Below are positions 18,315-55,785 of a stretch of 64,000 bases of DNA, piece by piece. Location: assembly GCF_026210795.1 (NCBI RefSeq), contig NC_089433.1, forward strand, positions 4,278,001 to 4,342,000. The letters are read 5' to 3'. How positions within the stretch are numbered: the first letter of the stretch is position 1; each line of letters opens with the position of its first letter. The translations under genes and the position numbers were made by a program. The stretch is from Rhizophagus irregularis (Eukaryota). Below the pieces are notes generated by a model. The model did not search any database and had not been told where the DNA came from. It was given only the letters and a program-made list of their open reading frames with translations.

Positions 18315-18362
18315 TAGAGCACAATGATAATAAGGAACGGGGAAAAGGAATCAAGAAGTCAG

Positions 18363-20480: not shown

Positions 20481-20746
20481 GTTAGAAGGTATGAGTTGGG
20501 TAAAATATAAGAGTTGTTAGTACGAAGATATAAAATTTTCTTTCCAAAAATTTTTGGTCAATAGATCGGCGGTAAGAGATCTATCAGTCCTTATCATCAG
20601 TCCTTATCAAAAAATACAAGAATACCTGATGATGAGGTTACATGGTCATCAGTCCTTATCAAAAATGCAAGAATACCTGATGATAAGGTTACATGGTCAT
20701 CAATCCTTGTCGAAAAAATGCAAGGATACCTGATAAATAAGTTACT

Positions 20747-21053
20747 GGGTTATTGGCCTAGAATGCATTCATGGAAAAACTATGGATTATATTACAGAAA
20801 ATGTGAACGGAGTTCATGTCACATGATACCCTGAACAAATGTGTAGAGTGTCATGTGATTTCACGCAGTATGTAGATTATTTCCTTTTTAGGCGATACCA
20901 TTTCACAAAAATCGATTTTGGTAAAAATGCGTTGGGAATCTTGTGTAACATAAATTTCCTTTTTAGGTAATTCGGGATTACGCGGTAATGCCGGCCGGAT
21001 CTAAAAAATATGACTCTGCAGAGTAATTCCTACAAAAGTCAAGTACAAAATGC
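20747..21053. mobile_element. 307-bp insertion without TIRs, flanked by TTACT direct repeats
   Basis: Absent from copy B; TTACT at 20742-20746 and 21054-21058. Confidence 0.75.
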
Positions 21054-21072
21054 TTACTCCTGTTGAGTCCAT

Positions 21073-21720
21073 TCATACCACCCCCAGTCCCCAAGGATCG
21101 CCTCCCCATCTATGTTCACTTAATGCATGCTCTATGGCAGTGATGTGGCGGGACAGTGTCCCACAAAATTTCGATGTCCTGTCCAAGTCCAATTTCATTT
21201 GTCCCGTCCTGTCCTGTCCAAAATATTGTCCAATTTATTAATATTATATATAAATCATATATATAAATCATATATCCTCTTATAATGAATTTTTGTCCTG
21301 GACATCAACAACATCTTGTTCAAGTCCTGGACTGTTCCGTCCTGTCCCATCCAAGGACATGTTCCAGTCCCAGTCACAACACTGCTTTATGGTTTCCTTC
21401 TCTTGGGGGTCCACGACCATCCCATTCCTAAGCATTTTCTCCATAATATAAAGCTGATCCTCGGTGAGGCAGTCTATCCATCTTTTATAGAAGTCGTTTA
21501 CATCTTCAAATGATATCCAGTCAATATTCCCTTTTTCAAACAGCTTTCCAAGAGCTTGGACATGCCCAATTGTAGTAGCGTAATTTTTCCATCTCTTATA
21601 TGCTTCTTGACGAACCTCCTGCCACTACACACTATCTACTTTACTCGCTGCAATAAGGTCAGTATCTGGGATCTTTGCAACAATGCGTTCGACTATTTCT
21701 ACTGGTAATCAGTCCAACAT
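21073..21720 (-). pseudogene. F-box-like protein 1, copy A (early stop, small deletion, MITE insertion)
   Basis: Homologous to 39041-39439; reads ATG TTG GAC TGA; interrupted at 21138-21384. Confidence 0.75.
21138..21384. mobile_element. hAT-type MITE (247 bp)
   Basis: Termini CAGTGATGTG...CACAACACTG; 8-bp TSD CTCTATGG/CTTTATGG; absent from copy B; internal TGTCC repeats. Confidence 0.85.
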
Positions 21721-21813
21721 GATGTTATGTTACTTATACTATAGCCATCTTCAATTACTGTATGCCCATTACAAATGGATAAAAAATATAAACTAAATTC
21801 GTACAGGAGCCGC

Positions 21814-22283
21814 TTATGCAAGAAGTTCTGCTAAGGTTTTCTCAGCCTCATTCATAGTGACAGCTTGCTTTGGGGACCTGTTAATGAGTCCTTAGTTACA
21901 TTATAATACAACTCGAAGAGGGCCTCAAGTTTGTCTAAAAGAGCTTGTTTATTCTTGTATGATTCACAAATCTTTGCTATCTTAGCAGTATATGCTGCAT
22001 TATCTGGGAAGAGTTTTCTGGCCATGAACTTCACATATGATACAGGAGACTTTGCTGTCTGGATTCTCTTGATATACTTCACATGATCCTGGACAAGGTA
22101 GCTGGTTTTGCTAAACCCAGATACTAATGCGACTACTATAGTGTCTTTTAATGCACGGATAATCTTGAAGACAGTTTCATCAGAGACAATGGTGAACTGA
22201 TTGCATGATGCATCATAAATAACTTCATCACTAATGCTGTCAGTGCAGTTAATAATGCTTGCTAATTCAGTATATGTTGATAT
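21814..22283 (-). pseudogene. Hypothetical 156-aa protein, copy A
   Basis: Homologous to 39533-40003; start codon mutated to ATA and a frameshift near 21865. Confidence 0.7.
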
Positions 22284-22396
22284 GATTCCTTATACTTTTT
22301 TGTACTTTGTAATAAATAGGAATCTTCAAATTGACTTTACATTCAAGCAAGAAAAAATATATATACCTACTGTAAATCCAACTGCATTCTTGGCAA

Positions 22397-24252
22397 TCAT
22401 GTCCAGATAACCTTGTTTGCATTTTTCACATGGCAGTATCCTGCAGTTTCAAACTTGAGAGCTTTCAATGCTTTGGATGCATTTTCTGGACAAGTGATAA
22501 GTGTAGGACTACTCGGCTGTTCCTCTAGAATAAATCCATCTGTATGGATGCGTCGTACTTTATCCTTATATGGTTCTAATAACTCTGAAGTCATCTTCCG
22601 TCCATGTGCTAATAAGAATGGAGCAATCCTAGGATACTCACCCTTGAAGGGACTACCTGGGTTTGTGAATTGGAATCGCCACTGGTCAGATCCTACTGGT
22701 ATGATGGAGTCAAGTGTGTGGCCTTCTGGAAACTTGAATGGATTTGTTTGATCTGTGGTGAGTGTCTTGTAATTGCGTTTCCTCTGGCAGAGTGCTCCCC
22801 ATAATGTATTGAGAACTCTCTTTGCAATACGACCAGCCACGCCACCCTGGTTCTTTATATTGAAGAGAAAGTGAACATACTCACCAAATATTACAGTCCC
22901 AGGAATTCTTGCTTCTCTGTCATATATCAAGGCATTTGGCTTTCCATCCTGGATTAACTGTATATCAAGACCAAGTTTCTTTGCTCGTTGTAAGTCAATG
23001 AATGTATAGACTCCCCTCTTATTCTGTCGGAAGAGAATGTCATTACCACTTACCTTAGCACGAAATAATCCATACAAGGCATAACCTCTGTGGTCTACAA
23101 AGTCTTTGAGTATTTGAAACTTACCTTGTTGGATTGGAAAGTTAGCATTCGATTGCTGAATACTTGGATACAAACTTGTCATGTCGTATTGTCTTCCATA
23201 GCCCTTCCATTCATTATCTGCCCAGATAAGACCTCCCATCATTGCATCACTTATCCACTCTGCTTTGACTGGATCAAGAGGATCATTAGCTGGAACTCCT
23301 ATACTAAACCGTTTAAAAAGCCAGAGAGCAGTTCTCTTGTACAACCAGTTGTGGTAAGATAAGTCGATTCCTAGACCGAACTTCTTTGTAGCCTGTAAAA
23401 AAAATCCCGCTCTTCATAGATCCTCTGGTATGTTTCCTCAAGTATTTCATATATTCCAGTTTTACGATTCTTCTCAATAGGGATGAAGGAGTAACTATCA
23501 GAGTTCTTACCTTTCTGAAACTGTCCAACTGTAAGAGACTTAACTGTCTTACCATTGTATATTGTTACTACATTATTAACCCCATCTTCACGATAAACAA
23601 AGGGAGACTTTTGTTTTCTATCTAATTTACTAGGGTGAAGTCTTCCAGGATTCAGTGCAAGAGAGTAGTGGCCTTCAGACAGGATGAAGGTTGCACGTCT
23701 GTCAGATTTGCTTTTGGAAATTCGAGTGGAATCCCCTACAATATTAAGTGCAAGGCTTCCTGCAAGTTGTTCAATCTTATCCATATATGAGACTAGAACT
23801 GGAGCATCACGATTGAGACCTAATGCCTTTTTGATATATTCAGGCTTTTTTATAGTCTCGGATATTTTAGAGAATATACCATAGATATGCTTCAGGCATT
23901 CATACAGGCAATCATTTAGCTCCCCATTGCATCCCCCTGCAACCGGTGGAGCATCTCTCACATAAATTATGAATCGTTCAAAGTAATCAGGATCTGCATC
24001 ATCTGGTAGTTGTGCTTCATCATAGTGGTCCAAGAGTGAGAAGAGGCTGGCTGGTTGGTTTCCTGATGTCCATCCACCGGGTTTCCAGTTTTCATAGGGA
24101 AGTAGGATCTGGAACTTTCTATCTGGAAATCACGCCTGGAGAGTCTGACCGAGTCTGGCGATAGCTCCTCTGGAAAAGCGGGCACTGGAATACTGAAGTT
24201 CCTTAATGTCAGGTCGTGTTGGTAAAGTGCGGGCGATTCTTGAGTATTGCAT
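22397..24252 (-). pseudogene. Family B DNA polymerase (protein-primed type), copy A
   Basis: AMMGGL, YDMTSLYP, KRVLNTLWG, IHTDG; stop near 24130 and frameshift near 23400. Confidence 0.88.
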
Positions 24253-24336
24253 TTTTATGTATATGATTTGTCTTCAACTATAAATAATATCTTTCTATAT
24301 ATATACGAAAAAAAAAGAAATAATCTCAAATAGCGC

Positions 24337-26918
24337 TTACAATATGTCATTGATAGCGCCCTCAGTATCCTCTTCGTCCCAGTCATCGATGATTCCATTG
24401 GCGGCCTCCCATTCACGTTCCATATCAGTTTTTGGACGTTCCTCTGGGATTTCTCGTGCTTTACCTTTATTCATCTTCATAGTTTCATAACCAGAGGTAG
24501 TAGAGATAATCTTGGCATCACGATCCTCCTTGTATACTCTTATTAGATTTGTGAGTTCTTTACGGCTAGGTGTTTTAGGTGAGTTCCCATTATATTCGAT
24601 CCAGTCCTTGAAGTGGTCTACTACCTCCCTAAAGTAGTACTGGTACTTGTCCTCAATACGCGTTGTGGGACATTCCTCTACTTCAAACGCAAGTATTTCC
24701 CAGTCATACTCGTCTGACGCGTTTTGGTACTTAGCCCATAAATCCTTACCTGTATTGTAGAGATCATTGAACACCTGGTCCTTTGAATTCTTGACCATGG
24801 CTTATGATCCCATCGGTGCCTTTCATGCCAAGCCCAGTGTGCTTGAGTACCTTCCTTTGGTTCAGGGTCCCAGTCAACTTCTAGTTCTGTGTCAGGTTCT
24901 AGGATAGGTTGCTTTTTGAGAGTCAGTTCTACTACAGGTTCTGTAGAAGATTTGGAATCTGCGAGAGATTCAGATTTTGCAGAAGATTCTGCAGGAGACT
25001 CGGGTTGTTGCTCAGGAACTTGGTCTGCAGTTGTAGAATCTGAGTCAGATAGTAAGTTATCTAAAACGTCGTAGTCATCATTAGCTTCAAATGCAGGTTC
25101 CTCAGCAGGCAGCTCATTTTCTTGATCAGGTACCTCATCAGATAGATAACAGTCTGAGAAACTGTCTATAATTTCATTAGTATCTGACTCTATGGGAGCT
25201 GGAGATTCCTCAGGAATAGGATCCTCTTTGATGACAGGTGCAGGTTTTACCTTCAAGCAATCAGGTTTAGGTGGTACTGGTGGAGGAGCCTTTTTGGCAA
25301 CTGGTTGCTTTTCAGTAGGTTTTTCTTCAATAGGAGCAGGTTTTTCCTCAGCAGGTTTCTCAACAACTAGCTCCACTTCCTCTTGATCTACTTGCGATTT
25401 ACTAGCTGGATTATATATATTTGCCAAGAATTTCACCAAGGCATTTGGATCAGATGCGGGCTTCTCAGGAGTTTCTACATCTATTCCTTCTATATTGATT
25501 TCATCTGTTTCATGGATCTATTTTTTGCTGAGGTATTTCTTGTAAAGATCCTCCCTGGATATGCTATATACTTGGGTTAACTTTTTATTTATATAAGTCC
25601 GATTACTATTTATACTCAACTCATTTGATAGAATTCTAGAAGCGTTTATATTTGATAATGGTGAGATGCAATGAGTTTCACAGTATGAAGTATATACCCT
25701 ATAAAATTCTTGAACAGGTAGGTCGGTTATATGATTTTTTACTATGAGGTAAGTGTCCTTTATGAATTGAAATAGGGGTGGAAGAGTCGATATGATGTGA
25801 TCCTGCTTAGATGTTGTCATAGGTGGTGGATTCCCATTGAAGTCTGGGTAAGCATCTGCAATGGCTCTCAAGTAAGCATAGAATGCCTCACTGGTGCCTG
25901 GGTATTTCATAGCGTCACTGAGTTTCTTAAAGTAGTTGAGGTCTCCCTTGCGGGATGGTGACACATCCAAGAACACTGTGTGCCTATCGTCATTCTCCAC
26001 TCTAAGAGCATTTTCATTAGTGAGTACAATGGTGGATATAAAGTTTTTGTAATGTGTTGGCATCTTGTATTTTTCATGGATTTCCATTATGTCACCTGTT
26101 ACCTTATCCTTTAACGATCGATACAGATTATTCCACTGGCTTTTTTCTGTAGGTATTTTCTCGAGGAGGAGAAGAACCTTACCTTGTAATTGCCCATTGA
26201 AACTTCCAAGAATCGTTTGAGGATCGCTAGTCTTATAAACAAGTTGAGTACCTAAGACACTACGTTGAATGAAATCTGTTATAATACTCTTACCCCAACC
26301 CTGTCCAGATTTCAGGTAGAGAATCGAATACATTTTCCTTCCAGCTGCCACACCGGCCAACCACTTTATGATATACTCAGTAAGATTCCAATCGCCTGAA
26401 CACCAAATATCCTGAATGTGAGAGAAGATAAATTTAACCGCGAGGTGGGTTGTAGATTCAAAAGTGGATATCGGACACAGGATATGGAGGAATCCTGGAA
26501 AGATATTGAGATAAAGTTGGCCACCTAGTTTAAAGATACGGGATTTTTGAGGGTCACAGGTAGCTACACATACAGTACTATATTCGATCATAAACCATTT
26601 GTTGATATTAAATTCAACCTTTTGTAAAGGACCCTGTTCAGATTGTGTGTAAAAGACTTTGGTAATTGGACGGATAAGTTTATTAATATTTTTATCAGGG
26701 ATGTGCTTGAGGTTTTTGATTTCTGATCACCACATGAAGACTCCATGCGGGTTGGAGCAGGGGATAAAGTAACTGCAAAGATAACCTTTAGCTTGATTGA
26801 GATCTCTCATATTCTTTGCAGCGTTAATGAGCCGTTTAAGCTCATCAATACTAAAAGCCTTCTTTTGTTCACCGAACTTGGGGATAACTTGAGCTTGAGT
26901 GCTAGTTTGGGCAGTCAT
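24337..26918 (-). pseudogene. SF3/D5-like helicase with winged helix, Pro/Glu-rich linker and C-terminal domain, copy A
   Basis: GQGWGKS Walker A, LLLLE Walker B, LTN motif C; ORF pieces 26727-26933, 25518-26591, 24678-25439 and 24337-24798. Confidence 0.85.
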
Positions 26919-27138
26919 TTTTTGTTCTATCAAATCGAGTACTAATTTATAGTTACCTAATCTTCAATTGCCGAATATTTTTTCCAAAGATCTGCACTCC
27001 TACCAGGTTACCCTCCTGTAGTCCTGTGGTCCTGCGATTCTGCGGTCCTCTGGTTATATCTGGTTATCTTCTAGGGGTAAAAAAAAAACTATAAACCACG
27101 AACCTTTACGACTGCTCTAAATCTTCCCTTCCCCTTTT

Positions 27139-27507
27139 TCAAACTACATATATCTGAAATCCAAACCGCTCAAGAGCTCCTTTTACTATAGTTAGCTCTT
27201 TTCTAGTGTCCGTTAACTCTTTACAAGCCTTTTGATACGCCTTCCATTCAAGTTCATGGAGGTCACGATTTCTATTATCCTCCTCCTCCGATCGACCAAG
27301 AGCATCATTTGCTTTTTCCTTCTTTTCTACTGCCCTGTCGTATGCCTCCTCAGCTTTTTTATGCCACTTCCAGAGTACTTGTTCAGCTTCGGCTTTCCAG
27401 ATTGGGCTGACTTCTAAAAGATGTGGCCCAAAATTGCTACTTGGAATGAGTTCCAGGATATGGCCTACAAGTTCGGGGATTACTGATACTGCGTGCGGGG
27501 TATACAT
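27139..27507 (-). CDS. F-box-like protein 2 with coiled coil, copy A
   Basis: VIPELVGHILELIP...LLEVSPIW pattern; conserved in copy B (57948-58307). Confidence 0.6.
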   Translation of the reverse strand: MYTPHAVSVIPELVGHILELIPSSNFGPHLLEVSPIWKAEAEQVLWKWHKKAEEAYDRAVEKKEKANDALGRSEEEDNRNRDLHELEWKAYQKACKELTDTRKELTIVKGALERFGFQIYVV

Positions 27508-27779
27508 GTTATCTGTCCTTCATCGGGAAATTTTTTAAGATGCAGAACTGCGGAGATCTGTTAAATTAGCAGATCTCCGCATTTTTTTTGTGAATTTATG
27601 CGGAAGTCTGCGATTTTGCAGATTTTCACTTTTTATTTTTTACAAAGTTATGTAATAATCTGCAATTTTGCATATTTCCAATTTTTTATGTATGCATTTC
27701 TGTACGCTAAACCCGGAAAGTTAAAATTAATTCGTTCTTCGATGTTTTCATAAATATTATTAACTCTAACACCATCTAT

Positions 27780-31393: not shown

Positions 31394-31866
31394 GTCGTCG
31401 TGCTGGGTGTGGGCACGGTGCAAGCACCACCCACCTCCGGGTCTAACGACCTGTCGCAGTACCTATCTGGTCCCTACGGAACTCAGGAATCCCCATAAAT
31501 CCTCCACAATCCTACACATAGATCCTCCACAAAAATATATAACAAAAAAGGATAAAATAAAAGAAAAGAGAGGAAAATAAGAGGGAATCAGAAGAGTGTG
31601 GAGGATGTGGAGGATGTGGAGGATGTTTTAAAAAAATCAGGAGAGGGATTCCCCCAGAAAAAAGTTTTGATTTTACCCCCCCAGATCCTCCACATCCAGA
31701 ACATCTTCCACACGTACAGGATTCCGTCCGATCATCTGTATAAGCCGATGAGACAGCAAACCAGGTAGATTAACAGGTAAGCCCCTAGAAGGTCTATAGA
31801 GCTGGTAAGACCAACCCCATCCCGCCCCCGTCAGAAAAAATAAGTAATTGAACAATGGGTATACCA
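31394..31866 (+). repeat. Left TIR of copy B (473 bp)
   Basis: GTCGTCGTGCTGGG...GGGTATACCA; reverse complement of 58333-58805 with only a few mismatches. Confidence 0.95.
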
Positions 31867-31897
31867 AGACGATTCAGAATACTTTTAAAAGGCAGTA

Positions 31898-32218
31898 CTA
31901 ATCCGTTTTCCTCTTTTTTGCCTCTTTAAGACATTTATCAATACACTGCTTGCAAGTGTCATCAGCATCTAAAATTTTCTGTCCGAGTTTTTTGCATTGC
32001 CGATTGTAAGCCGTCTGCTGTCTCTTAGCAGCGGTTTCTTTCTTTTTCTCCTTAGTCTTCTTCTTGATCACCCAGTCTACTCCAGTAAAAGTATTCTTAT
32101 GCATACCACAAATTGTGCAGTCACCATGCAGCCGGTAACGCCCATTTGTAGTCATATCTTGTATTTCACTAGCAGTCTCAGTTTCCTTCTTGCACTTTAG
32201 ACAGTAAAATCGTGTCAT
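31898..32218 (-). CDS. Small basic zinc-ribbon protein (DUF5679-like)
   Basis: MTRFYCLKCKK...GDCTICG, Lys-rich tail and a further CxxC; probable ATG at 32218, divergent from the integrase. Confidence 0.75.
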   Translation of the reverse strand: MTRFYCLKCKKETETASEIQDMTTNGRYRLHGDCTICGMHKNTFTGVDWVIKKKTKEKKKETAAKRQQTAYNRQCKKLGQKILDADDTCKQCIDKCLKEAKKRKTD

Positions 32219-32262
32219 CTTGAGATTTGAAGTCTGAAATCTTTCCTTTAATTTGTCATAAT

Positions 32263-33354
32263 ATGTCACAATTAGAGAATTACTACAAGTACTACAGTCT
32301 ATCCAGAGTACCAGCACGAATTTTAAAAGGTGAAGAGCACTACAACCTATACAAAAAGCCCTTAAAGGAAAAGTCAACAGAACGCCCAAAGGTAATTGTA
32401 TGGAAACCAAATGCAACACACCAGGCAGATCTTGCAGAGATGCCAGTTGACCCCAAAGGATTCCACTATTTCTTCGTAGTGGTGGAAGTTGCAGGAAAGA
32501 GAGTCGATGCAGAGCCCTTGAAGGATAAAACTGCAAATAGGGTTCTCAATGGATTTGTCAAAATCTACAGAAGAAATCGTATCAAGCCTCCAACACACCG
32601 ACTGGAAACCGACTCCGGATCAGAATTCACTAATGACCAGGTACGTGATTTTTTCCTGAACAGCCTAGGGGTGATGATTAGGTTTGGAGAGCCGGGAAGA
32701 CATAAACAGCAATCATATGCTGAAAGAGCTATCCAAGCTATCCAAGAACCCCTTCTTAAACGAATGGTAGCACAGGAGTTGAAAACTGGGGTGACATCCG
32801 TGGAATGGTCAGAAGATTTCCATAATATAGTGAGTAAAGTAAATGAACTCTGGCAGAGAAATCCCCCAGACATTCCGACAGGGTCACCCAAAGTGTCAAA
32901 AAAGACAGACCTCCTCTCTGAAGGAACACGTGTCAGAGTCAAGTTAGATGAACCTATTTCTGTACTTGGTAACAAACTTCATGGAAAATTCCGTACAGGA
33001 GACATAAGATGGAACCCAAACATTCGTGTAATCAAAAAAATGATACTCTCACCTGAACAGCCTCCTACATATCTCCTTAATGGACCACATGGTCGATTAG
33101 GTGTATCCAGATGTGCATATACCCGAAAGGAATTGCAAGTAGTTTCTATTAATGAAAAGCCTCCACCTGACTCTGTGATAAGAGGACAACCCAAAAGATT
33201 CATACCTGAGCAGATACTTCGGCATCGCATTAGAAAAGGTCAAGACCAGTATTTGGTTAAGTGGGAGAGATACCCAGATACAGAAGCCACTTGGGAACCT
33301 GCTGACCAGTTGAAGGAAGATGTCCCTGACTTAATTCGCAAATTTTGGGAATAA
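32263..33354 (+). CDS. rve (DDE) integrase with C-terminal chromodomain
   Basis: HQADL, ETDSGSEF, YAERAI; Polinton-like GTRVRV...KFRTG...W segment; chromodomain YLVKWERYPDTEATWEP. Confidence 0.93.
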   Translation: MSQLENYYKYYSLSRVPARILKGEEHYNLYKKPLKEKSTERPKVIVWKPNATHQADLAEMPVDPKGFHYFFVVVEVAGKRVDAEPLKDKTANRVLNGFVKIYRRNRIKPPTHRLETDSGSEFTNDQVRDFFLNSLGVMIRFGEPGRHKQQSYAERAIQAIQEPLLKRMVAQELKTGVTSVEWSEDFHNIVSKVNELWQRNPPDIPTGSPKVSKKTDLLSEGTRVRVKLDEPISVLGNKLHGKFRTGDIRWNPNIRVIKKMILSPEQPPTYLLNGPHGRLGVSRCAYTRKELQVVSINEKPPPDSVIRGQPKRFIPEQILRHRIRKGQDQYLVKWERYPDTEATWEPADQLKEDVPDLIRKFWE

Positions 33355-33379
33355 AAAAAAATAGAAGAATTAAAGGGTC

Positions 33380-34116
33380 TTATTTTTTATCCCCTCGATT
33401 AGCATCAGGAACTATTGGGATAAAAACATTCTTCCCATTACAGGTAAAGGCTATATGTTCACGTGATTCATGGATATCATAATTGTAACGTTTCAGACAC
33501 GTTCGGCTTAACCCAATTTCCCTATGCTTGTAACCACTTAAGACTGCAAGGTCCTCAGTGATAGCATAATCAGGGGTAAGTTTGATTGTCACTCCCTTTA
33601 CCATACCGAATGTCCTACCTGTTCCTGGAGCACCAGATATGTTGTATGTAATACTCTTGTCGATATCCAACCCTAATTCCTCAGCAGCTTCTCTCTGAAT
33701 AAAAGACGCATTAGCACAAGTGTCTGCTAAACACTGAATTGCTATCCCATTAACCTCCCCATCCAGTGCTAAAAGATCTTTAGTATTCTCCAAACGAGCT
33801 ATATCAATATCCATAGGATCGTATTCCCTGATATCCTCTTCTTGTTCCTCCTCAGCTAAGTCATCTGAAATCTCTATGACTTTTCTAGCAGACATCATCT
33901 CCTCCTGAAGAATCTCACGGAGTAATTTCCTAAAGTCTGCAGACCTTAACAGGCTTAATAAGTCATTCTTAGTAACAGCTTTTGCAGGTGTAGACTTACT
34001 ACCAGTAACTTTCACAGGAATCTTAACAGGGGTTGCTTTGCCTTTCAAGGGTACACTAGAAGAGCTAACTGCTGTCTTATTTGGGGACGACTTAAGAAGT
34101 TTTGAGATACTCGAAC
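33380..34116 (-). CDS. Retropepsin-like aspartic protease, probably expressed as a Gag-Pro fusion
   Basis: GEVNGIAIQCLADTCANASFIQREAAEELGL; frame is open up to the A9 run at 34121-34129. Confidence 0.78.
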
Positions 34117-35547
34117 CTACTTTTTTTTTGACCCAACACGAACCATATAGACATCACCAACTTTTTCTCTCAATTCTACCTTTTCACCAAAACTCACAGT
34201 ATCAATGTCCATAGCATCATCGTTAAGATCAAGGTTTCTCATTGCTCGGGCCAAATCCAGATCATCACGTCTATCTTTAGCCTTCTGAAGTTGTTTTGTA
34301 AGTATTTTAGACGTCCCACGTTTATATCCCATAATAAGATCAATAGCATTTTGATGATCATCCAAAGTCCACTCAGGAGCATCAGGATCATCACCAACAT
34401 CATGATCTACATAACCATCATCCCAATCAGGATCCTGAGGATCCTGAATAACACGTCTCTGTGGTTTTGGTCGAACAGGTTTAATCTGCTGTCTATAGAC
34501 TGGTGGATTACGAACTGGCCGAGCCTGTAATTGTTTAAATTGCACCTGAAAATTCTTGGTAAGTTCCTCAGCTTGAGCCTTAAGTAACTCTTGTAATTGT
34601 TCTTGAGTAACCCCAGATGACTTTGATGTCAGTACGACAGGTTCCTGTTTTCCTAACGGAGGTTGAGTTACATCACTGTAATCTGCTTGAAGTCGTCGAT
34701 TTCTATCTTGTAACCCCAAGCGCATTTCAGCCCTTCTCTGTTCTAAATTTCTCAGATGTTTAACCAAGTCATCAGAATTAAGATTGTGAAACCTTTCTGC
34801 TTCAAAAATATTATCAGCCGAAAGACCTCTAAAGAACTGGTCGATAATAAGATCATTAGTTAGTTTTAGTAATTTTCCAGCCCTCTTTACAGTTCTATAA
34901 AATGCATCAACTGGCTCATTTTCCTGATAAAGACTGTTAAAACGGATACGTTTCTTTTCATCTAAAATAGTTGGGAATTGTGTTCTAAGCCAATAAAGCG
35001 CCTGGTTAGGTTTAATACCTGGAAAAACTATAGGCCGATTATCATTAGCAGCAACACCAGCATCTGCAGTAGCCGGAGCAGCTCTATCTGTCGGACGAGC
35101 ACCAGCTCTTCCTCAAGCTTTATCTCCACCTATTAAATCATGAGTAGGAATAAATGCTGCTCTAATAGTTGCTAATGCATTAACTGGATCTGTAGCATAA
35201 GTCTGTGCTTCAGACCCATTTACATAAGTACCTGCATTCGGTCCTCCTGCACCTTCTGGTATTACTAATGCTACAAAAGCAGCTAAATTAGCTCCACCTC
35301 TTGAAGTGATACCAGAAAGTTCCCAATTTTTTCCTGTAATTTCTCGATCAAACCATTCAGCTGCTCCACCGGCCATGCAGCTTCTAAGTATACCCATAGC
35401 TCTTTTCCAAGACTCTGGTGGCCCTCCAGCAGCATATGGGTTAAGATTAATAGTATCAAGATAACCCATATAAAGCCTAACAAATGTATCAATATCATCA
35501 GTAGCTTTACCCTCAAAAATCGGCAATCCTATCGCAGTGGTAGCCAT
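34117..35547 (-). CDS. Ty3/gypsy-type Gag capsid protein (~476 codons, one in-frame TGA at 35113-35115)
   Basis: LPIFEGKATDDIDTFVRLY...ILRSCMAGGAAEWF (CA-NTD) and LYQENEPVDAFYRTV...IIDQFFRGL (MHR/CA-CTD); parallels the gypsy Gag at 51051-51758 in this window. Confidence 0.82.
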
Positions 35548-36326
35548 ATCGTCTCTAGTGGATTGTTTAATATAGGTGGAGGAGGGTTCAATTGTCTAAT
35601 TCGAAACCATTGTACCTGAATTCTAAGAGCAGCTATCTGTTGGAAAAGTTTATTTCTAAGTCTCCCTAATGTCTGAATCCCAAAACGCACCCTATTATTA
35701 GCATGTGCTAGCTGTGCATTAACCTGTCCAAGTTGCGCATTAGCCAATACAAGTTGTCCTCCAGTCCGAGTAGCCCTCAGCCGCCAATGATTTAGAAGGA
35801 TATTACCACGATTCACAGCATTTTGAGCCTCATTACGATCCCTTACTGCTTGAGTATAATCTGCTTGTAATACATTACGTTCATGTCGTGCCTGATTACG
35901 TTCACCTATAGCCCGTCGACGAAACTCTACCATAGTATCATAATCTCTTTGCAGGTTATGGTTTTCTTCTATGAAATTATCATTGGCAGCACGTATAATA
36001 ACTAATTGACGTTCTAAATTAGTAAACGTTTCATCAAATGCATTTATCTTACCTTGTGCAAAAACTAACAAATCTTTTGTAATACCAAGTTCTTCATGTT
36101 TTGCTTTACAGCGATACATTAATATATTAATAATATGTTTGATTTGATTATTTGCCTCCTGTATCTCTGAATCAACAGTTAAACGACCCCTGGTAGTCAA
36201 TAAATTTGCATGAGCCTTTAGTATTCTAACTAATTCATCATCGTCTTTTTCATTGACCAAGTGTGCAGGAGGCGGTCCAGTAGGTTCTGAAGGAGTATAA
36301 ACTGGAATTGGTGTTGATGTCGACAT
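35529..36326 (-). CDS. 265-aa coiled-coil protein overlapping the Gag start
   Basis: Intact ORF with heptad-rich centre and Pro-rich ends; conserved in copy A. Confidence 0.75.
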   Translation of the reverse strand: MSTSTPIPVYTPSEPTGPPPAHLVNEKDDDELVRILKAHANLLTTRGRLTVDSEIQEANNQIKHIINILMYRCKAKHEELGITKDLLVFAQGKINAFDETFTNLERQLVIIRAANDNFIEENHNLQRDYDTMVEFRRRAIGERNQARHERNVLQADYTQAVRDRNEAQNAVNRGNILLNHWRLRATRTGGQLVLANAQLGQVNAQLAHANNRVRFGIQTLGRLRNKLFQQIAALRIQVQWFRIRQLNPPPPILNNPLETIWLPLR

Positions 36327-36357
36327 AGTATTTAAACTAAGTAAGAATAAAATTTAA

Positions 36358-37581
36358 ATGGATCTTTATGTATACAATTTGGACGAGTACACGACTGACT
36401 CAAGACAAGGCAATGAGTTTGCTCCATCATGGCCCTTTCGATTAGCCGTAGCAGGTAGCTCAGACTCAGGTAAGACAACTATGATCATTAACTTGTTAAT
36501 GGGTGACAAGAAGGCAAAGGAGGATGGTAATCGGTATGTACTATGTGATGCAGTACTTTTAGTTGGCAGATATCTTGACGAGCCGAAGTGGGCAGTTGTA
36601 CATGATTTTTTCAAAGAGGAGAAGATCCCATTCACTGCAGTAACCCATAGTGAGATTCCAGAGATTGACTCCTTCGACCCTACTCAAGCTACTGTGGTAA
36701 TCTTCGAGGATCTGATGGATGCACCTAAAAAAATCCAGGATCTCATCACTGGTTACTTTACACATGGACGACACAAAAATATTTCATATATTTATGTAGC
36801 CCAAAGATTCTTTGCCATGCCTAAGGCTATTCGAGAAAATGTTAACTACATCTCACTGCATGGAGGTCATGGGAGCCTTACAGATACTAAGAGAATCATC
36901 CGCCTATATACAGAAGAATCAGAGTCATTAGCACCAGTAATTGATGATCTTACTCTGCAACGTGAATTTGTAGTGTTTGATCTTAGACGGTCTAAAAGTG
37001 ATCCACTGTCCATTCGAGTAAGATGGGATACTAGTCTCAGTTCGATCACAGAGCAATCTCAGTTCAATCCTAGTTCAATCTCAGTTCAATCTCAGTTTGA
37101 TCCAAGTTTGAACCCAGTTCGATCTCAGTCTGAACCCAGTTCAATCACAGTTCGATCCAAGTTTAGTCCCTATGGTCAGAAAGCTGTATCTGAAGCAAAA
37201 AAAGGTGGACACTTGATTGAATTTGCTCGGGTATTTCCATCCCCTAAAGAGCGTCAACATTTACTTGTACCTGGTGTCTTAGCCAAGAATACAGATACCT
37301 GGATTAAATTTGTCTTTCGGGAAGCTTATGGACTTTCTGGTAAGACCCTAGGAGCTGACTTTCAGGACTTCTTAGCAAAAGTACAGGGTAGGACTGCAAA
37401 GACTGAAACTCTGAAAACTGAGAATGTGAAGGAGTTATTCTCCCGATATGAAGCCCTGAAGTCTAGTCGCCCTCTGGATAATAAAAAAATAATAGAAGGT
37501 ATTGAAGATCTTCTACAGATCTTTTCTAAGAGCCACATGGACCGTCGAGCATTACAAGTAGGGATTAATAGTATCTTGTGA
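36358..37581 (+). CDS. A32/FtsK-HerA-like genome-packaging ATPase with C-terminal extension
   Basis: PFRLAVAGSSDSGKTT Walker A, VVIFED Walker B, FTHGRHKNIS.IYVAQ.FF..PKAIRENVNY signature of Polinton/NCLDV packaging ATPases. Confidence 0.92.
   Translation: MDLYVYNLDEYTTDSRQGNEFAPSWPFRLAVAGSSDSGKTTMIINLLMGDKKAKEDGNRYVLCDAVLLVGRYLDEPKWAVVHDFFKEEKIPFTAVTHSEIPEIDSFDPTQATVVIFEDLMDAPKKIQDLITGYFTHGRHKNISYIYVAQRFFAMPKAIRENVNYISLHGGHGSLTDTKRIIRLYTEESESLAPVIDDLTLQREFVVFDLRRSKSDPLSIRVRWDTSLSSITEQSQFNPSSISVQSQFDPSLNPVRSQSEPSSITVRSKFSPYGQKAVSEAKKGGHLIEFARVFPSPKERQHLLVPGVLAKNTDTWIKFVFREAYGLSGKTLGADFQDFLAKVQGRTAKTETLKTENVKELFSRYEALKSSRPLDNKKIIEGIEDLLQIFSKSHMDRRALQVGINSIL
37036..37167 (+). repeat. 12 x 11-bp tandem array inside the ATPase gene (also 10627-10758 in copy A)
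   Basis: Units CTCAGTTCGAT, CACAGAGCAAT, CTCAGTTCAAT, CCTAGTTCAAT ... CCAAGTTTAGT. Confidence 0.85.
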
Positions 37582-38125
37582 GAATATCAAGTAATTCGTC
37601 TGCAGAAGCTCTAAGAATCATAGCACTTTTTTTACGGCCTTCAAAGTCAATCCTTAACATCTTAGCCTTCAACCCTATTGCTCCTAAGGCACGAGAAGCA
37701 AAGTTCTTAGTCATTGAATTACTTATATGATTTACATAGTTCTCATAGAATGTATTGAAAGGCTCGTCGATACCATCTGGATATGTACCCCTTAGAAATT
37801 GATATAAGGCAATTTCTCCACTATCACAACCTATGGCTATAAGCTGTTCGAGAAGCCACTTCCTAATATCTTCATATGGCTCTCCATCCATAATTTTCAT
37901 ATCCAGTCTTTGTGAAAACAATTGTGTAAAGTCCACATTACTTGCCCGACGAATGATCTGAACTAACTTATCCCTAGCAAGTCCCAAGGCTTGTAGAGGG
38001 TCATTCTCATCATTAATCTTCTTTATAATCTGTCTGTATAATACACTGGATAATCCTCTATGTGCTGTTTTTGGAGTGATTACTCCACAGTTTTGGCACT
38101 GGTTTATTACGATTGATGTTGACAT
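37565..38125 (-). CDS. Hypothetical 186-aa protein
   Basis: Intact in both copies; its 3' end overlaps the ATPase convergently. Confidence 0.7.
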   Translation of the reverse strand: MSTSIVINQCQNCGVITPKTAHRGLSSVLYRQIIKKINDENDPLQALGLARDKLVQIIRRASNVDFTQLFSQRLDMKIMDGEPYEDIRKWLLEQLIAIGCDSGEIALYQFLRGTYPDGIDEPFNTFYENYVNHISNSMTKNFASRALGAIGLKAKMLRIDFEGRKKSAMILRASADELLDILTRYY

Positions 38126-38170
38126 GGCTATCTTTCTTTATGTAAAAAAGAATTATTCAAAATTAAGTAA

Positions 38171-38752
38171 CTATTCGGAGCAGTCCTTGCACAACTTGTC
38201 CGTTAAGTCACTTGGGCTTACAGGCATGAGACATTCCTTACACAACTCAATATTAAGCTCTGCAAGTCTCGGGGTATGGTCCTCCAAAGTTCGTGGATGA
38301 CCGGAAGGACCAGAGGAAGGTGTCCCATTAGTCGTATCTTGCTGTAAGATAAAATCATCATATTCATCTTGGTCAGCCTGAATAGCGGCCCTGATTTGTT
38401 GTATATCATTGAAAGTTAACCGCTGCCCATCAAGATTTTCCTCATTATAGCGTGTTTCATTGATGATTTCCTCTATAAGCGCCTCTTTTTCATAATGGAC
38501 AAGGTAGTAATCCTCAACTACCTCATAGTCACTCTCAATCAGTCTATGATATGTTCTAGTACCACGTCAAATATAACGTCCTGTATCTGTATTTAAATAT
38601 ACAGGTTGCTCTTCAGGTGGAGGTGCAGTTTGTCTACGGACAAGCCTTCCATCAATATAATCATGGGATTCCATAACTATTCGATTAAAGGTATCTCCAC
38701 CAACACAGATTGGACGTCCAGTTATAGGATTAGTTATATAAGGGTATGACAT
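38171..38752 (-). pseudogene. NPxTGR-repeat / zinc finger protein, copy B (nonsense at 38567-38569)
   Basis: Homologous to the intact 11762-12343; CGA>TGA. Confidence 0.72.
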
Positions 38753-38809
38753 GTCTTTTTTCTGTACGTGTCTACATACCTAATTGTTATCTTCAATTTA
38801 CAATAACCA

Positions 38810-39020
38810 AGTGACATCGTCATCAGTCGTTATCAAAAAAAATGCAAGAATACCTGATGATGAGGTTACATGGTCATCAGTCCTTATCAAAAATGCAAGG
38901 ATACCTGATGATAAGGTTACATGGTCATCAATCCTTGTCGAAAAAATGCAAGGATACCTGATGATAAGGTTACATGGTCATCAGTCCTTGTCAAGAAATA
39001 TGAGGATACCCGATAAATAA
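38810..39020. repeat. Intergenic ~50-bp tandem repeats (GATACCTGATGATAAGGTTACATGGTCATCAGTCCTT...)
   Basis: About four degenerate units; copy A has one unit fewer and received the LINE here. Confidence 0.8.
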
Positions 39021-39040
39021 GCTACTCCTGTTGAGTCCAT

Positions 39041-39439
39041 TCATTCCACTCCCCAAGGGTCGCCTCCCCATCTTTGTTCACTTAATGCATGCTCTATGGT
39101 TTCCCTTTCCTGGGGGTTCACAACCATCCCATTCCTAAGCATTTTCTCCATAATATAAAGCTGATCCTCGGTGAGGCGGTCTATCCAGTTTTTATAGGAG
39201 TCATTTACATCTTCAAATGTCATCCACTCAATATCCCCCTTTTCAAACCGCTTTCCAAGAGCCTGGATTTCCCAGTACACATCCCCGATCGTAGTAGCGT
39301 AATTTTTCCATCTCTTATATGCTTCTTGACGAACCTCCTGCCACCACACACTATCTACTTTACTCGCTGCAATAAGGTCAGTATCTGGGATCTTTGCAAC
39401 AATGCGTTCGACTATTTCTACTGGTAATCGGTCCAACAT
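39041..39439 (-). CDS. F-box-like protein 1
   Basis: MLDRLPVEIVERIVAKIPDTDLIAASKVDSVW matches the F-box consensus L..LP.E+...I...L...DL.....V...W. Confidence 0.78.
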   Translation of the reverse strand: MLDRLPVEIVERIVAKIPDTDLIAASKVDSVWWQEVRQEAYKRWKNYATTIGDVYWEIQALGKRFEKGDIEWMTFEDVNDSYKNWIDRLTEDQLYIMEKMLRNGMVVNPQERETIEHALSEQRWGGDPWGVE

Positions 39440-39532
39440 GATGTTATGTTACTTATACTATAGCCATCTTCAATTACTGTATGCCCATTACAAATGGATA
39501 AAAAATATAAACTAAATTCGTACAGGAGCCGC

Positions 39533-40003
39533 TTATGCAAGAAGTTCTGCTAAGGTTTTCTCAGCCTCATTCATAGTGACAGCTCGCTTTGGGGGACCTG
39601 TTAATGAGTCCTTAGTTACATTATAATACAACTCGAAGAGGGCCTCAAGTTTGTCTAAAAGAGCTTGTTTATTCTTGTATGATTCACGAATCTTTGCTAT
39701 CTTAGCAGTATATGCTGCATTATCTGGGAAGAGTTTTTTGGCCACGAACTTCACATATGATACAGGAGACTTTGCTGTCTGGATTCTCTTGATATACTTC
39801 ACATGATCCTGGACAAGGTAGCTGGTTTTGCTAAACCCAGATACTAATGTGACTACTATAGTGTCTTTCAATGCACGGATAATCTTGAGGACAGTTTCAT
39901 CAGAGACAATGGTGAACTGATTGCATGATGCATCATAAATAACTTCATCACTAATGCTGTCAGTGCGGTTAATAACGCTTGCTAATTCAGTATATGTTGA
40001 CAT
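39533..40003 (-). CDS. Hypothetical 156-aa protein
   Basis: Intact ORF; homologous region present in copy A. Confidence 0.7.
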   Translation of the reverse strand: MSTYTELASVINRTDSISDEVIYDASCNQFTIVSDETVLKIIRALKDTIVVTLVSGFSKTSYLVQDHVKYIKRIQTAKSPVSYVKFVAKKLFPDNAAYTAKIAKIRESYKNKQALLDKLEALFELYYNVTKDSLTGPPKRAVTMNEAEKTLAELLA

Positions 40004-40116
40004 GATTCCTTATACTTTTTTGTACTTTGTAATAAATAGGAATCTTCAAATTGACTTTACATTCAAGCAAGAAAAAATATATATACCTACTGTAAATCCA
40101 ACTGCATTCTTGGCAA

Positions 40117-41973
40117 TCATGTCCAGATAACCTTGTTTGCATTTTTCACATGGCAGTATCCTGCGGTTTCAAACTTGAGAGCTTTCAATGCTTTGGATGC
40201 ATTTTCTGGACAAGTGATAAGTGTAGGACTACTCGGCTGTTCCTCTAGAATAAATCCATCTGTATGGATGCGTCGTACTTTATCCTTATATAGTTCTAAT
40301 AACTCTGAAGTCGTCTTCTGACCATGTGCTAATAAGAATGGAGCGATCCTAGGATACTCACCCTTGAAGGGACTACCTGGGTTTGTGAACTGGAATCGCC
40401 ACTGGTCAAATCCTACTGGTACGATGGAGTCAAGTGTGTGGCCTTCTGGAAACTTGAATGGATCTGTTTGATCTGTGGTGAGTGTCTTGTAATTGCGTTT
40501 CCTCTGGCAGAGTGCTCCCCATAGTGTATTGAGAACTCTCTTTGCAACACGACCGGCCACGCCACCCTGGTTCTTTATATTGAAGAGAAAGTGAACATAC
40601 TCACCAAATATTACAGTCCCAGGAATTCTTGCTTCTCTGTCATATATCAAGGCATTTGGCTTTCCATCCTGGATTAACTGTATATCGAGACCAAGTTTCT
40701 TTGCTCGTTGTAAGTCAATGAATGTATAGACTCCCCTCTTATTCTGTCAGAAGAGAATGTCATTACCACTTACCTTGGCACGAAATAATCCATACAAGGC
40801 ATAACCTCTGTGGTCTACAAAGTCTTTGAGTATTTGAAACTTACCTTGTCGGATTGGAAAGTTTGCATTTGATTGCTGAATACTTGGATACAAACTTGTC
40901 ATGTCGTATTGTCTTCCATAGCCCTTCCATTCATTATCTGCCCAGATAAGACCTCCCATCATTGCATCACTTATCCACTCTGCTTCGACTGGGTCAAGAG
41001 GATCATTGGCTGGAACCCCTACACTAAACTGTTCAAAAAGCCAGAGTGCAGTTCTCTTGTACGACCAGTTGTGGTAAGATAAGTCGATTCCTAGACCGAA
41101 CTTCTTTGTAGCCTGTAGAAAGGAATCCCGCTCTTCATGGATCCTCTGGTATGTTTCCTCAAGTGTTTCATATATTCCAGTTTTACGATTCTTCTCAATA
41201 GGGATGAAGGAGTAACTATCAGAGTTCTTACCTTTCTGAAACTGTCCAACTGTAAGAGACTTAACTGTCTTACCATTGTATATTGTTACTACATTATTAA
41301 CCCCATCTTCACGATAAACAAAGGGAGACTTTTGTTTTCTATCTAATTTACTAGGGTGAAGTCTTCCGGGATTCAGTGCAAGAGAGTAGTGGCCTTCAGA
41401 CAGGATGAGGGTTGCACGTCTGTCAGATTTGCTCTTGGAAATTCGAGTGGAATCCCCTACAATATTAAGTGCAAGGCTTCCTGCAAGTTGTTCAACCTTA
41501 TCCATATATGAGACTGGAACTGGAGCATCACGATTGAGACCTAATGCCTTTTTGATATATTCAGGCTTTTTTATAGTCTCGGGTATTTTAGAGAATATAC
41601 CATAGATATGCTTCAGGCATTCATACAGGCAATCATTTAGCTTCCCATTGCATCCCCCTGCAACCGGTGGAGCATCTCTCACATAAATTATGAATCGTTC
41701 AAAGTAATCAGGATCTGCATCATCCGGTAGTTGTGCTTCATCATAGTGGTTTAAGAGTGAGAAGAGGCTGGCTGGTTGGTTTCCTGATGTCCATCTACCG
41801 GGTTTCCAGTTTTCATAGGGGAGCAGGATCTGAAATTTATGTGTCGGATACCGGGATTGGAGTCGCTGTCCAAGTCTTGCTATTACTCCTCTGGAAAATC
41901 TTGCGCCTGAATACTGTAATTCTTTGATATCCGGTCTTGTAGGTAAAGCACGGACAATCTCTGAATAAACCAT
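40117..41973 (-). pseudogene. Compact family B DNA polymerase, protein-primed type (618 codons; single CGA>TGA at 40747-40749)
   Basis: Motif A YDMTSLYP, motif B KRVLNTLWG, motif C IHTDG, pre-A AMMGG; the two ORFs are in frame and copy A has Arg at the stop position. Confidence 0.88.
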
Positions 41974-42037
41974 TTGATGTATTTATGAATTGTGTTCAGT
42001 TGTAATATAGGTTTTTTATACAAAAAATATAAGATAA

Positions 42038-44106
42038 CTAAGAAGTGCTTATCTTATTAAAAGGAGTCAATCTTGCTGCATACACGATCAAGATCCTCTT
42101 CATCCCAGTCATCGACGATTCCATTGGCAGCTTCCCATTCACGTTCCATATCAGTTTTTGGACATTCCTCTGGAATTTCTCGTGCTTTACCTTATTCATC
42201 TTCATAGTTTCATAACCAGAGGTGGTAGGGATAATCTCGGCATCACGATCCTCCTTGTATACTCTTATTAGATCTGCAAGCTCTTTACGGCTAGGTGTTT
42301 TAGATAAGTATCCATTATATTCGATCCAGTCCTTGAAGCGGTCTACTACTTCCCTAAGGTAGTACTGGTACTCGTCTTCAATACGTGTTGTGGGACATTC
42401 CTCTACTTCAAACGCGAGTATTTCCAAGTCATACTCGTCTGACGCGTTTTGGTACTTAGCCCATAAATCCTTACCTGTATTGTAGAGATCATTGAAGACC
42501 TGGTCCTTTGAATTCTTGACCCATGGCTTATAATCCCATCGGTGCCTTTCATGCCAAGCCCAGTGTGCTCGAGTACCTTCCTTTGGTTCAGGGTCCCAGT
42601 CAACTTCTAGTTCTGTGTCGGGTTCTGGGATAGGTTGCTCTTCAGGAGCCGGTTCTGGGTCAGGATTAGTGACAGATGCAGAAGATTCTGCGGGAGACTC
42701 GGATTGTTGTTCAGGAGCCAGTTCTGGGTCAGGCTTAGTGACAGATGCAGAAGATTCTGCGGGAGACTCGGGTTGTTGTTCAGGAGCTGGGTTCACAGTT
42801 GTAAAATCTGAGTCAGATAGCAAGTCATCTAAAACGTCATAGTCATCATCAGCTTTAAATGCAGGTTCCTCAGCAGGCGGCTCATTTTCTTGATCAGGTT
42901 CCTCATCAGATAGATAACAGTCCGAGAAGCTATCTATAGGTTCATCAGTATCTGACTCTATAGGAGCTGGAGATTCCTCAGGAATAGGATCCTCATTGAT
43001 GACAGGTGCGGGTTTTACCTTCAAGCAATCGGGCTTAAGTGGTACTGGTGGTGGAGTCTTTTTGGAAACTGGTTTCTCTTCAGTAGGCTTCTTCTCGACA
43101 GGAGCGGGTTTTTCCTCAGCAGGTTTCTCTTGTACGTCTTGTGGATTATTAGCAGGAATGCTATGTATATTTGCCAAGAACTTCTCTAAGGCTTTGGGAT
43201 CAGATGCGGGTTTCTCAGGAGTATCTATATCAATTCCTTCTATATCGATTTCATCTGTTTCATGTATCCAGTTTTTGCCAAGAAACTTCTTGTATAGATC
43301 CTCCCTAGATATACTGTAAACTTGTGGTGTTGTTTTACCTATACGCATTTTTTTACTTTTTATACTTAGCTCATTTGATAGGATTCTGGATGCATTGATC
43401 TTTGATAGGGGTGAAATGCAATGAGTTTCACAGTATGAAGTATATACCCTATAAAATTCTTGAATAGGTAGGTCGGTTATATGATTTTTTACTATGAGGT
43501 AAGTGTCCTTTATGAATTGAAATAGGGGTGGGAGAGTCGATATGATGTGATCCTGCTTAGATGTTATCATAGGTGGTGGATTCCCATTGAAGTCTGGGTA
43601 AGCGTCTGCAATGGCTCTCAAGTAAGCATAGAATGCCTCACTGGCGCCTGGATATTTCATAGCATCACCGAGTTTCTTAAAGTAGTTGAGGTCTCCCTTG
43701 CGGGATGGTGACACATCCAAGAACACTGTGCGCCTATCATCATTCTCCACTCTGAGAGCATTTTCATTGGTGAGTACAATGGTGGATATAAAGTTTTTGT
43801 AATGTGTTGGCGTCTTGTATTTTTCATGGATTTCCATTATGTCACCTGTTAACTTATCCTTCAACGATCGATACAGATTATTCCACTGGCTTTTTTCTGT
43901 AGGCATTTTCTCAAGGAGGAGAAGAACCTTACCTTGTAATTGCCCATTGAAACTTCCAAGAATCGTTTGAGGATCGCTGGTCTTATAAACAAGTTGAGTA
44001 CCTAAGACACTACGTTGAATGAAATCTGTTATAATACTCTTACCCCAACCCTGTCCAGATTTCAGGTAGAGAATCGAATACATTTTCCTTCCAGCTGCCA
44101 CACCGG
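42038..44106 (-). pseudogene. SF3/D5-like helicase, 3' part (interrupted by the LTR element)
   Basis: GQGWGKS, LLLLE, LTNEN, DDRR; winged-helix-like segment and Pro/Glu repeats; 1-nt deletion near 42190. Confidence 0.88.
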
Positions 44107-45484
44107 TGTCACCCCCGTCTGCCACCCGGCGGTAAACAAAGTTCCCTGCTTCTGTTATATGTGCTCTCAGCGAAACATTAACATTCTTGCTTGGTTTAGT
44201 TTTATTACTACTTAACTTTCAAATTGCGATAGCTCTCGCCACGATATTTCATCCATTATCTTCTTTCAAAATACGATAGTTCTCTTTACAAAAGTTTATA
44301 TTTTATTCATTTCATAATTCTTGTTATGACATTAAATTCACCATGAATTTGTCCAATTAAAATTAATTAAGCGAACATTACAGTAAAGTTTAGGGCGAAC
44401 CTATTACCTTTAAAATAACATTACGCTTTACTAACAATTAATTAAACAAAATTACTTTTTCATCATAGGAAAATAGTAACAAAAACAATCGAAACAATTA
44501 ATTTTCATATAAAGGGTATTTTATTTATTCTTCATAAAATTCACAATTTAACTAATTTACTTAAAGTTTTACATCGTATCTGACGACTGTGGAATTCACC
44601 TCCCATTCCGCTCCTATTTAAACCAACTTTCTTATTCTTTCTTTTCTTACTTCTTATTTCTTTCTAATATTTTATATGTTATCTTTTATGCGCTATCTTA
44701 TATGCTATTTATATATTATCTTTTCTAATATGTTATACTATTTTAATACGCTATCTTTTCTTTAAAATAAAATAATCTTTCAAATATTATATCGTAAAGA
44801 TCCATCTTTTGTGGCTATGCTATCTTTTCTTTAAAATAAAATAATCTTTCGAATATTATATCGTAAAGATCCATCTTTTGTGGCTGTGCTATCTTTTCTT
44901 TAAAATAAAATAATCTTTCAAATATTATATCGTAAAGATCCATCTTTTGTGGCTGTGCTATCTTTTCTTTAAAATAAAATAATCTTTCAAATATTATATC
45001 GTAAAGATCCATCTTTTGTGGCTGTGCTATCTTTTCTTTAAAATAAAATAATCTTTCAAATATTATATCGTAAAGATCCATCTTTTGTGGCTGTGCTATC
45101 TTTTCTTCTGCGTCTCGTCAGCTATTCTTCTACTGCGGCTGCAGTTCATCAATATTTTACATGTTCCTATTTTTTTTGTTCCTTTAATTCGCTATCCTTC
45201 CTTTTTATATGATTTATCATTTGTGGCTTATGATTACTCCTCCTAATTGTTCCTATTGTTGAACTTGATAAACTGGTTGCTAAGCCACATCGATCAACTC
45301 CCCACTTGATCTATTGGTTCCCCGTTAATCATTTAATAAACATTACATCATGTAGATCATTCCTTCTCCTAAAAGTTTATCCTTTCCGGTTAGTTTTATC
45401 CAATCATGTGACTTTCTATCGTTTGATCTTTTATTCCATATTATTCCTCCATATTATGCGATTACTTCAGCATCTATGGCTACA
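44107..45484 (-). repeat. 3' LTR (1378 bp)
   Basis: TGTCACCCCC...GGCTACA; no differences seen by eye from 55786-57163. Confidence 0.96.
44750..45107. repeat. Five-plus copies of a 69-bp tandem repeat inside the LTR (also 56429-56786)
   Basis: GCTATCTTTTCTTTAAAATAAAATAATC... unit starts at 44750, 44819, 44888, 44957, 45026 and partially at 45095. Confidence 0.92.
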
Positions 45485-45499
45485 GTTTGCCCCCCACCT
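45485..45499 (-). promoter_or_regulatory. Polypurine tract
   Basis: Minus strand AGGTGGGGGGCAAAC immediately before the 3' LTR. Confidence 0.8.
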
Positions 45500-45514
45500 A
45501 AAATTTGAGTCCCA

Positions 45515-55782: not shown

Positions 55783-55785
55783 AAT

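Follow-up and report, generated by a model that had tools for sequence, protein, structure and literature searches.

Candidate iteron arrays in the terminal repeats of Rhizophagus irregularis Maverick/Polinton elements and a multi-allelic predicted helicase wing

Two Maverick/Polinton copies in one window

The window (the whole 64-kb stretch of Rhizophagus irregularis DNA that was analysed) contains two copies of one large element, denoted A and B, each interrupted by a retroelement, as delineated by self-comparison and family scans (Table 1). The terminal inverted repeats (TIRs), the integrase, the protein-primed DNA polymerase B (pPolB) and the A32-like ATPase identify the element as a Maverick/Polinton. 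TIRs of these elements start with 5'-AG as a rule, and this start is seen at the left TIR of A and the right TIR of B. The junction that ends copy A, at 27520, also occurs in a contig of run X1. When examined for a 6-bp target-site duplication, copy B was found to be flanked by GACCGG on the right and GACCG on the left, where the junction lacks about 3 bp. By sequence reading, the hAT-type host of copy B occupies about 31353–31393 and 58807–59160, has TAGGGATG ends and is bordered by the 8-bp duplication gtcaccat. An expansion of Mavericks in Glomerales has been reported (PMC11952901; bioRxiv 10.64898/2026.06.19.733378).

The rve integrase match (E 9.6e-7, 29.4 bits) falls slightly below the cut-off of 32.6, and a chromodomain is also present; the DNA_pol_B_2 match (E 5.7e-7) is over its cut-off, and pPolB is broken in both A and B. 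The SF3 helicase matches DUF5906 (E 2e-15), with Walker A, Walker B and motif C visible in the sequence. Its closest relatives come from R. irregularis, R. clarus and R. diaphanus, and neither viral contigs nor prokaryote genomes yielded a relative when scanned with the helicase. Pfam recognised no primase family on the helicase or among the open reading frames (ORFs) scanned, and neither a jelly-roll capsid protein nor a cysteine protease in 32 ORFs. Capsid-less Polintons have been described (PMC4028283). Opposite the chromodomain integrase lie gag-like and aspartyl-protease frames (33380–36353 and 6972–9139, both on the − strand), possibly a retroelement-derived module replacing the capsid module.

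Several further repeats were observed. The coding region of the A32-like ATPase contains 11-bp tandem repeats (10593–10787 and 37002–37196), and a unit of 51–53 bp is present in three to four copies in both elements (20594–20753 and 38811–39026), in A at the point of LINE insertion. At 61697–63069 lies an array built from ~327-bp units, and every unit contains inverted repeats. The RT–RNase H frame of the LTR retrotransposon (47200–49533, − strand) runs on into a C-terminal P-loop, nucleotide-kinase-like region with weak NB-ARC/NACHT matches.

Table 1 Features of the two element copies, numbered from the first letter of the window
Feature	Position	Strand	Remarks
Maverick/Polinton copy A	4980..27520	.	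Left TIR present; right end missing
Left TIR, copy A	4980..5449	+	5'-AGTC start
A repeat cluster 1, ATCTGTCA-type	5082..5113	+	Offsets 0, +10, +23
A repeat cluster 2	5181..5207	-	Inverted, period 9
A repeat cluster 3	5267..5294	+	
LINE-type insertion in copy A	about 12430-20590		
SF3 helicase, copy A (D5/NrS-1-like, DUF5906)	25518..26591	-	ATPase and winged helix; premature stop at end
A wing allele INSNRTYINKKLTQVY	25566..25613	-	
Maverick/Polinton copy B	31394..58806	.	Sits within small hAT-type element
Left TIR, copy B	31394..31866	+	473 bp, 98% to right TIR
B repeat cluster 1, ATCCTCCAC	31499..31530	+	Offsets 0, +10, +23
B spacer 1	31531..31597	.	76% A+T, 85% purine on + strand; candidate melting site
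B repeat cluster 2	31598..31624	-	Inverted, period 9
B repeat cluster 3	31685..31711	+	Middle unit degenerate
rve integrase with chromodomain, copy B	32263..33354	+	Pfam run on A copy 5855-6946
A32-like ATPase, copy B	36358..37581	+	Pox_A32 E 9.2e-9
186-aa protein, likely second RFX/D5-type winged helix at end	37565..38125 (B), 11156-11716 (A)	-	
Protein-primed DNA polymerase B (pPolB), copy B	40117..41973	-	Stop-broken; Pfam on A copy
B helicase: ATPase, winged helix, acidic tail	42038..44106	-	
B wing allele IKSKKMRIGKTTPQVY	43316..43363	-	Predicted β-hairpin
LTR retrotransposon, splits B helicase gene	44107..57163	-	
B helicase N-terminal part	57164..57729	-	No Pfam family match
Right TIR, copy B	58333..58806	-	Carries identical 3 × 3 array layout

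Repeat arrays in the terminal inverted repeats

Each TIR array is composed of three clusters of three 9-mers, oriented +, − and +, and the arrays of A and B are in register. Copy A has the repeat word ATCTGTCAT, and copy B has ATCCTCCAC. With at most two mismatches allowed, A has nine ATCTGTCAT matches, at 5082, 5092 and 5105 (+), 5181, 5190 and 5199 (−) and 5267, 5275 and 5286 (+), and a tenth, weak match lies at 5317. In B, ATCCTCCAC is found at 31499, 31509 and 31522 (+), 31598, 31607 and 31616 (−) and 31685 and 31703 (+); the cluster 3 unit between these last two sites, at 31694, is degenerate with three mismatches. A sequence-only reading of the window had described about nine in-register short repeats in three alternating clusters with the word swapped between copies, and the arrays are present as described. 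The same reading had the TIRs of both copies aligning well outside the repeats. The units do stand out, with A/B differences at 39 of 86 positions within the nine units, compared with 56 of 356 positions in the rest of the TIR (Fisher p 2e-8, for units picked after inspection); however, the sequence outside them is itself 16% diverged, against about 5% in the element body, and whereas B has two TIRs, A offers the left one only, its homology to B ending at 27520.

Exact ATCCTCCA sites number 12 in the whole window, and every one of them falls within B's TIRs. Best-8-mer counts of 10 in A, 8 in B left and 8 in B right were matched by none of 200 dinucleotide shuffles each; in a stricter version of the test, which required all four bases, B reached only 6, while the shuffles peaked at 5 and 6. 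In 45-bp windows, the highest peaks of A/B difference are the three clusters, the helicase region that encodes the predicted wing, a patch at the helicase end and pPolB start, and low-complexity tail stretches.

The same array shape recurs in distant relatives. Among seven metagenome helicase loci, three (L004, L006 and L007, with best protein segment identities of 80%, 48% and 46%, respectively) include enough sequence upstream of the helicase gene, and all three carry three clusters there in the orientation pattern of A and B. Across A, B and these three loci, cluster 1 has offsets of 0, +10 to 12 and +22 to 24, cluster 2 has a period of 8–9, the cluster starts are 88–101 and 81–87 bp apart, and spacer 1 has an A+T content of 70–76%. 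The words differ, being ATCTGTTCC in L004, ATCTGTCCC in L006 and ATCTGT(T/A)CC in L007. Five of the six arrays scored above all 200 shuffles; that of L006 was reached by 17 of 200. Judged from sequence, constant geometry combined with changing words is the pattern that would be expected for the sites of a multimeric, evolving binder.

The helicase wing and its alleles

Between A and B, the non-synonymous divergence (pN) of the helicase is 0.34 in the divergent patch and 0.015 in the 220 codons upstream. An AlphaFold2 model of the C-terminal domain (pLDDT 89.8) has strands at residues 62–77 that span this patch, the divergent residues forming the β-hairpin that follows helix 3; in a model of the full 357 residues, the ATPase was poorly predicted (pLDDT 55). 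Structural matches to the domain are RFX5 (Z 6.5, rmsd 3.1, 69 aligned), RFX1 (Z 6.2), the origin-binding domain of phage P4 (Z 5.1) and several Orc/Cdc6 winged helices, middling scores (<8) of a kind common for winged helices. Its neighbours in a language-model atlas are Pox_D5 clusters (0.94–0.96), neither model had a Foldseek match at E ≤ 0.001, and the sole match in a PDB sequence search was RFX5 (E 0.19). The model and the fold matches thus place the divergent patch on the predicted wing of an RFX/D5-type winged helix, where the sequence-only reading had put it. That reading also held the helicases to be nearly identical in the ATPase core. The wing is divergent, but it is not the sole divergent coding patch, further peaks lying at 24098–24342 and in the low-complexity tail near 24900 and at 25350–25390. 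The first of these, aligned with about 41820–42060 in B, is a mosaic patch that covers the last helicase codons, a spacer and the first ~55 pPolB codons. Helicase ends are of at least three types.

Among 60 close helicases, two wing blocks have entropies of 1.28 and 0.83 bits, against 0–0.37 in the ATPase. The wing was readable in 94 of 126 sequences. Many of the database proteins are gene models of decayed copies. In R. irregularis the wings fall into six classes, labelled by the analyst: SRKIRVGKATPR, SKKMRIGKTTPQ (the class of B), SKVVRKGGKTPR, SKLVRKDKKPTR, SNRTYINKKLTR (the class of A), and SDRVYIDKKRTR with its kin. At least six discrete wing alleles occur on helicases that are otherwise ~90–98% identical. 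When wing class is mapped on a tree of the core without the wing (57 rows of at least 230 residues each, with a classified wing), eight classes require 20 changes, compared with a minimum of 7 and a shuffled mean of 39, so that wing classes show clustering but do not come near monophyly. Copies A and B lie side by side on this tree and have different wings. With the long-branch row P0061 omitted, AU tests rejected a single clade for all four classes tested (p-AU for K3, 8e-43; K4, 8e-5; B type, 2e-4; A type, 6e-11), and wings like K3 and K4 recur in distant clades with 99% support (L001 beside P0039, and P0107 beside P0037). Wing class also mixes with both N-terminal types and with all three C-terminal end types.

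Silent divergence (pS) between A and B is 0.63–0.70 over the 56 codons round the wing, compared with 0.07 in the 220 codons upstream, a peak that suggests alleles long kept in balance within a recombining gene. The wing pN/pS of this pair is about 0.5 and hence makes no pairwise case for positive selection.

The 186-residue protein supplies an internal control. Its winged helix is likely paralogous to that of the helicase (hhalign E 6e-5, probability 66%), and its wing is identical in A and B. With 0.15–0.17 bits, this wing is among the least variable blocks of the protein (19 of 37 close sequences) and is still recognisable at 50–60% overall identity. Wings are thus not simply labile in the element, and the protein is probably a regulator of constant specificity.

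Word and wing could be read on one element only in A and B, and their apparent covariation rests on these two. Since A lacks the right TIR, its wing is linked to the left TIR only; moreover, because wings mix with N- and C-terminal types across the family, two copies would often differ at both sites by chance. No metagenome locus has both array and wing: three of the seven have the array only, three the full wing only and one neither. Contigs from four runs on the right arm of B, with listed pieces of at most about 600 bases, contain none that phases word and wing; among the loose contig ends there, A-type words appear in X15 and X4, and X15 also gives a hint of a third word, TCTGTTACT. Among 122 database proteins, no gene model runs into a TIR. 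The winged proteins nearest to L004 (P0038, 82%) and L007 (P0043, P0045 and P0048, 53–58%) have Y-type wings like that of A, and the words at the two loci are of the ATCTGT kind also seen in A, which gives weak agreement of wing and word at the level of class. The nearest match to L006 offers no wing sequence, so this locus adds nothing on the pairing.

Candidate iteron origins and competing explanations

To our knowledge, little is known of how Mavericks/Polintons begin replication, which is commonly depicted as starting by priming at the extreme terminus. From the observed anatomy and allele pattern we infer, with moderate confidence, that the TIRs contain iteron origins read by the predicted helicase wing, and that word and wing together define specificity groups. 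The nine repeats would form an iteron-type loading origin in which each wing allele pairs with its own word. Neighbouring winged-helix domains of one hexamer could occupy the three repeats of a cluster, about one helical turn apart, and the inverted clusters would orient the helicase round A+T-rich spacers, about 100–320 bp from the end. The duplex would then be melted and the terminus opened by the helicase, giving access to pPolB for protein-primed synthesis; pPolB may stand in for the primase that was not recognised. If the helicase loads on the arrays through its wings, wing and word would have to change together. Copies with a rare wing/word pair would face less competition from non-cognate or defective copies, and it is this insulation from defective copies that, as proposed here, would preserve rare pairs; old alleles would stay in balance while recombination homogenises the remainder. 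A bolder form of the proposal, for which our expectation falls a little short of even, is that glomeralean Mavericks load their own SF3 helicase on iterons in both TIRs, and that one species hosts at least six mutually insulated groups, each set apart by a wing cassette of 16 residues with its 9-bp word and balanced over the long term across fungal lineages, like self-incompatibility alleles. Such groups would constitute a natural wing-to-DNA code.

The idea of an origin-binding domain and its iterons as a specificity system had been raised in the sequence-only reading. Parts of it hold, namely the predicted wing fold, the discrete old alleles and the conserved geometry with changing words; its geminivirus and plasmid Rep model was dropped, since the protein combines an SF3 helicase with a winged helix and is not an HUH or RepA initiator. 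By analogy, the apt precedent is the SF3 helicase-initiators of Staphylococcus aureus pathogenicity islands (SaPIs) and phage P4. SaPI Rep1 and PriRep5 share with the Maverick protein an SF3 ATPase followed by a C-terminal winged helix, and share with its arrays opposed short iterons round A+T-rich DNA (bioRxiv 10.64898/2026.10.17.759575; PMC9371898). The cryo-EM study of PriRep5 describes a wing that sits in the major groove and reads the bases of the iterons there, with iterons of 7 bp set 2 bp apart (bioRxiv 10.64898/2026.10.17.759575), a 9-bp period close to that of cluster 2. SaPIs differ in being bacterial satellites with a primase and a single internal origin downstream of rep, whereas the Maverick is eukaryotic, has arrays in both TIRs, a protein-primed polymerase, no recognised primase and many alleles in one host species. 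Such domains are not always specific, given that SaPI Rep1 is reported to discriminate poorly (PMC9371898) and that the pRN1 domain is reported to give no footprint (PMC2777425).

In the α protein of phage P4, too, an SF3 helicase is followed by a C-terminal winged helix (PMC2777425). The fold likeness of P4 and RFX domains to the Maverick domain amounts to Z 5–6.5 only. P4 α includes a primase, and its replicon is circular. In the Vibrio cholerae PLE, a RepA_N domain and an iteron origin are reported to covary and to be swapped as a module on a conserved backbone, with cognate pairing demonstrated experimentally (PMC8263062). PLE differs in its unrelated initiator fold, its two types and its driver, the phage nuclease Odn; the Maverick unit would be a 16-residue hairpin with six or more types. 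The principle is already known from SaPI, P4 and PLE. In the openly accessible literature searched, at the level of titles and the starts of abstracts, no account of Maverick iterons or origin specificity was found. If the reading is correct, a TIR iteron origin read by the element's own helicase would provide a concrete initiation step and a link to replicons of the SaPI and P4 type, balanced wing/word pairs in one genome would point to competition between copies as a force shaping a eukaryotic mobile element, and the alleles would offer a natural variant set for learning how RFX-type wings read DNA.

Other readers of the repeats have to be weighed. The words may be bound by another factor, such as the N-terminus of pPolB or a terminal protein, the integrase or a host protein, with wing alleles maintained separately and the A/B match a by-product of mosaicism. 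The second divergent patch of A and B, at the pPolB start, makes the pPolB N-terminus a further candidate reader of the ends, and the free mixing of modules and the number of linked pairs, two, also favour such a by-product. Against this, the integrase differs little between the copies (pN 0.023), the wing of the second winged helix is the same in both, and no other target is at hand for at least six old alleles confined to the predicted DNA-reading hairpin; we regard binding by another factor as unlikely. It is less probable still that the wing reads the repeats for a purpose other than starting replication, either to regulate transcription from promoters of the helicase and integrase at the TIR inner ends or to pair the ends for excision. 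Protein-primed replicons are able to start without an internal origin, and in B and the metagenome loci the arrays lie about 250–850 bp upstream of the helicase start, beside a conserved AAAAAT-N-AATT(G/A)AA motif, as an operator might; the opposed clusters round A+T-rich spacers, however, match SaPI origins.

We give least credence, and very little, to the suggestion that the word itself is irrelevant, the repeats forming a stem in the displaced DNA strand or being homogenised by slippage and hairpin-templated conversion, and the wing being a labile loop. Clusters 2 and 3 do pair in every one of the five predicted array folds (z −0.8 to −4.3), and hairpin pairing could be a route by which nine units change together. 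Yet the fold of the A array is no better than those of shuffles (z −0.8 and −1.0), a stem requires neither internal periodicity nor a matching word in cluster 1, and the spacing is conserved in distant relatives. A labile loop also fits poorly with the near-invariant paralogous wing and with helicase wings that form discrete alleles and no continuum. Iteron origins read by the helicase wing thus remain the preferred explanation.

The motif AAAAAT-N(0–4)-AATT(G/A)AA occurs within the window only at the TIR inner ends, at 5419, 31836 and 58363. It is also present upstream of the helicase in three distant loci, at 78 and 152 in L001, 640 and 679 in L004, and 516 and 560 in L006, and is a candidate promoter or a candidate site for the second winged helix.
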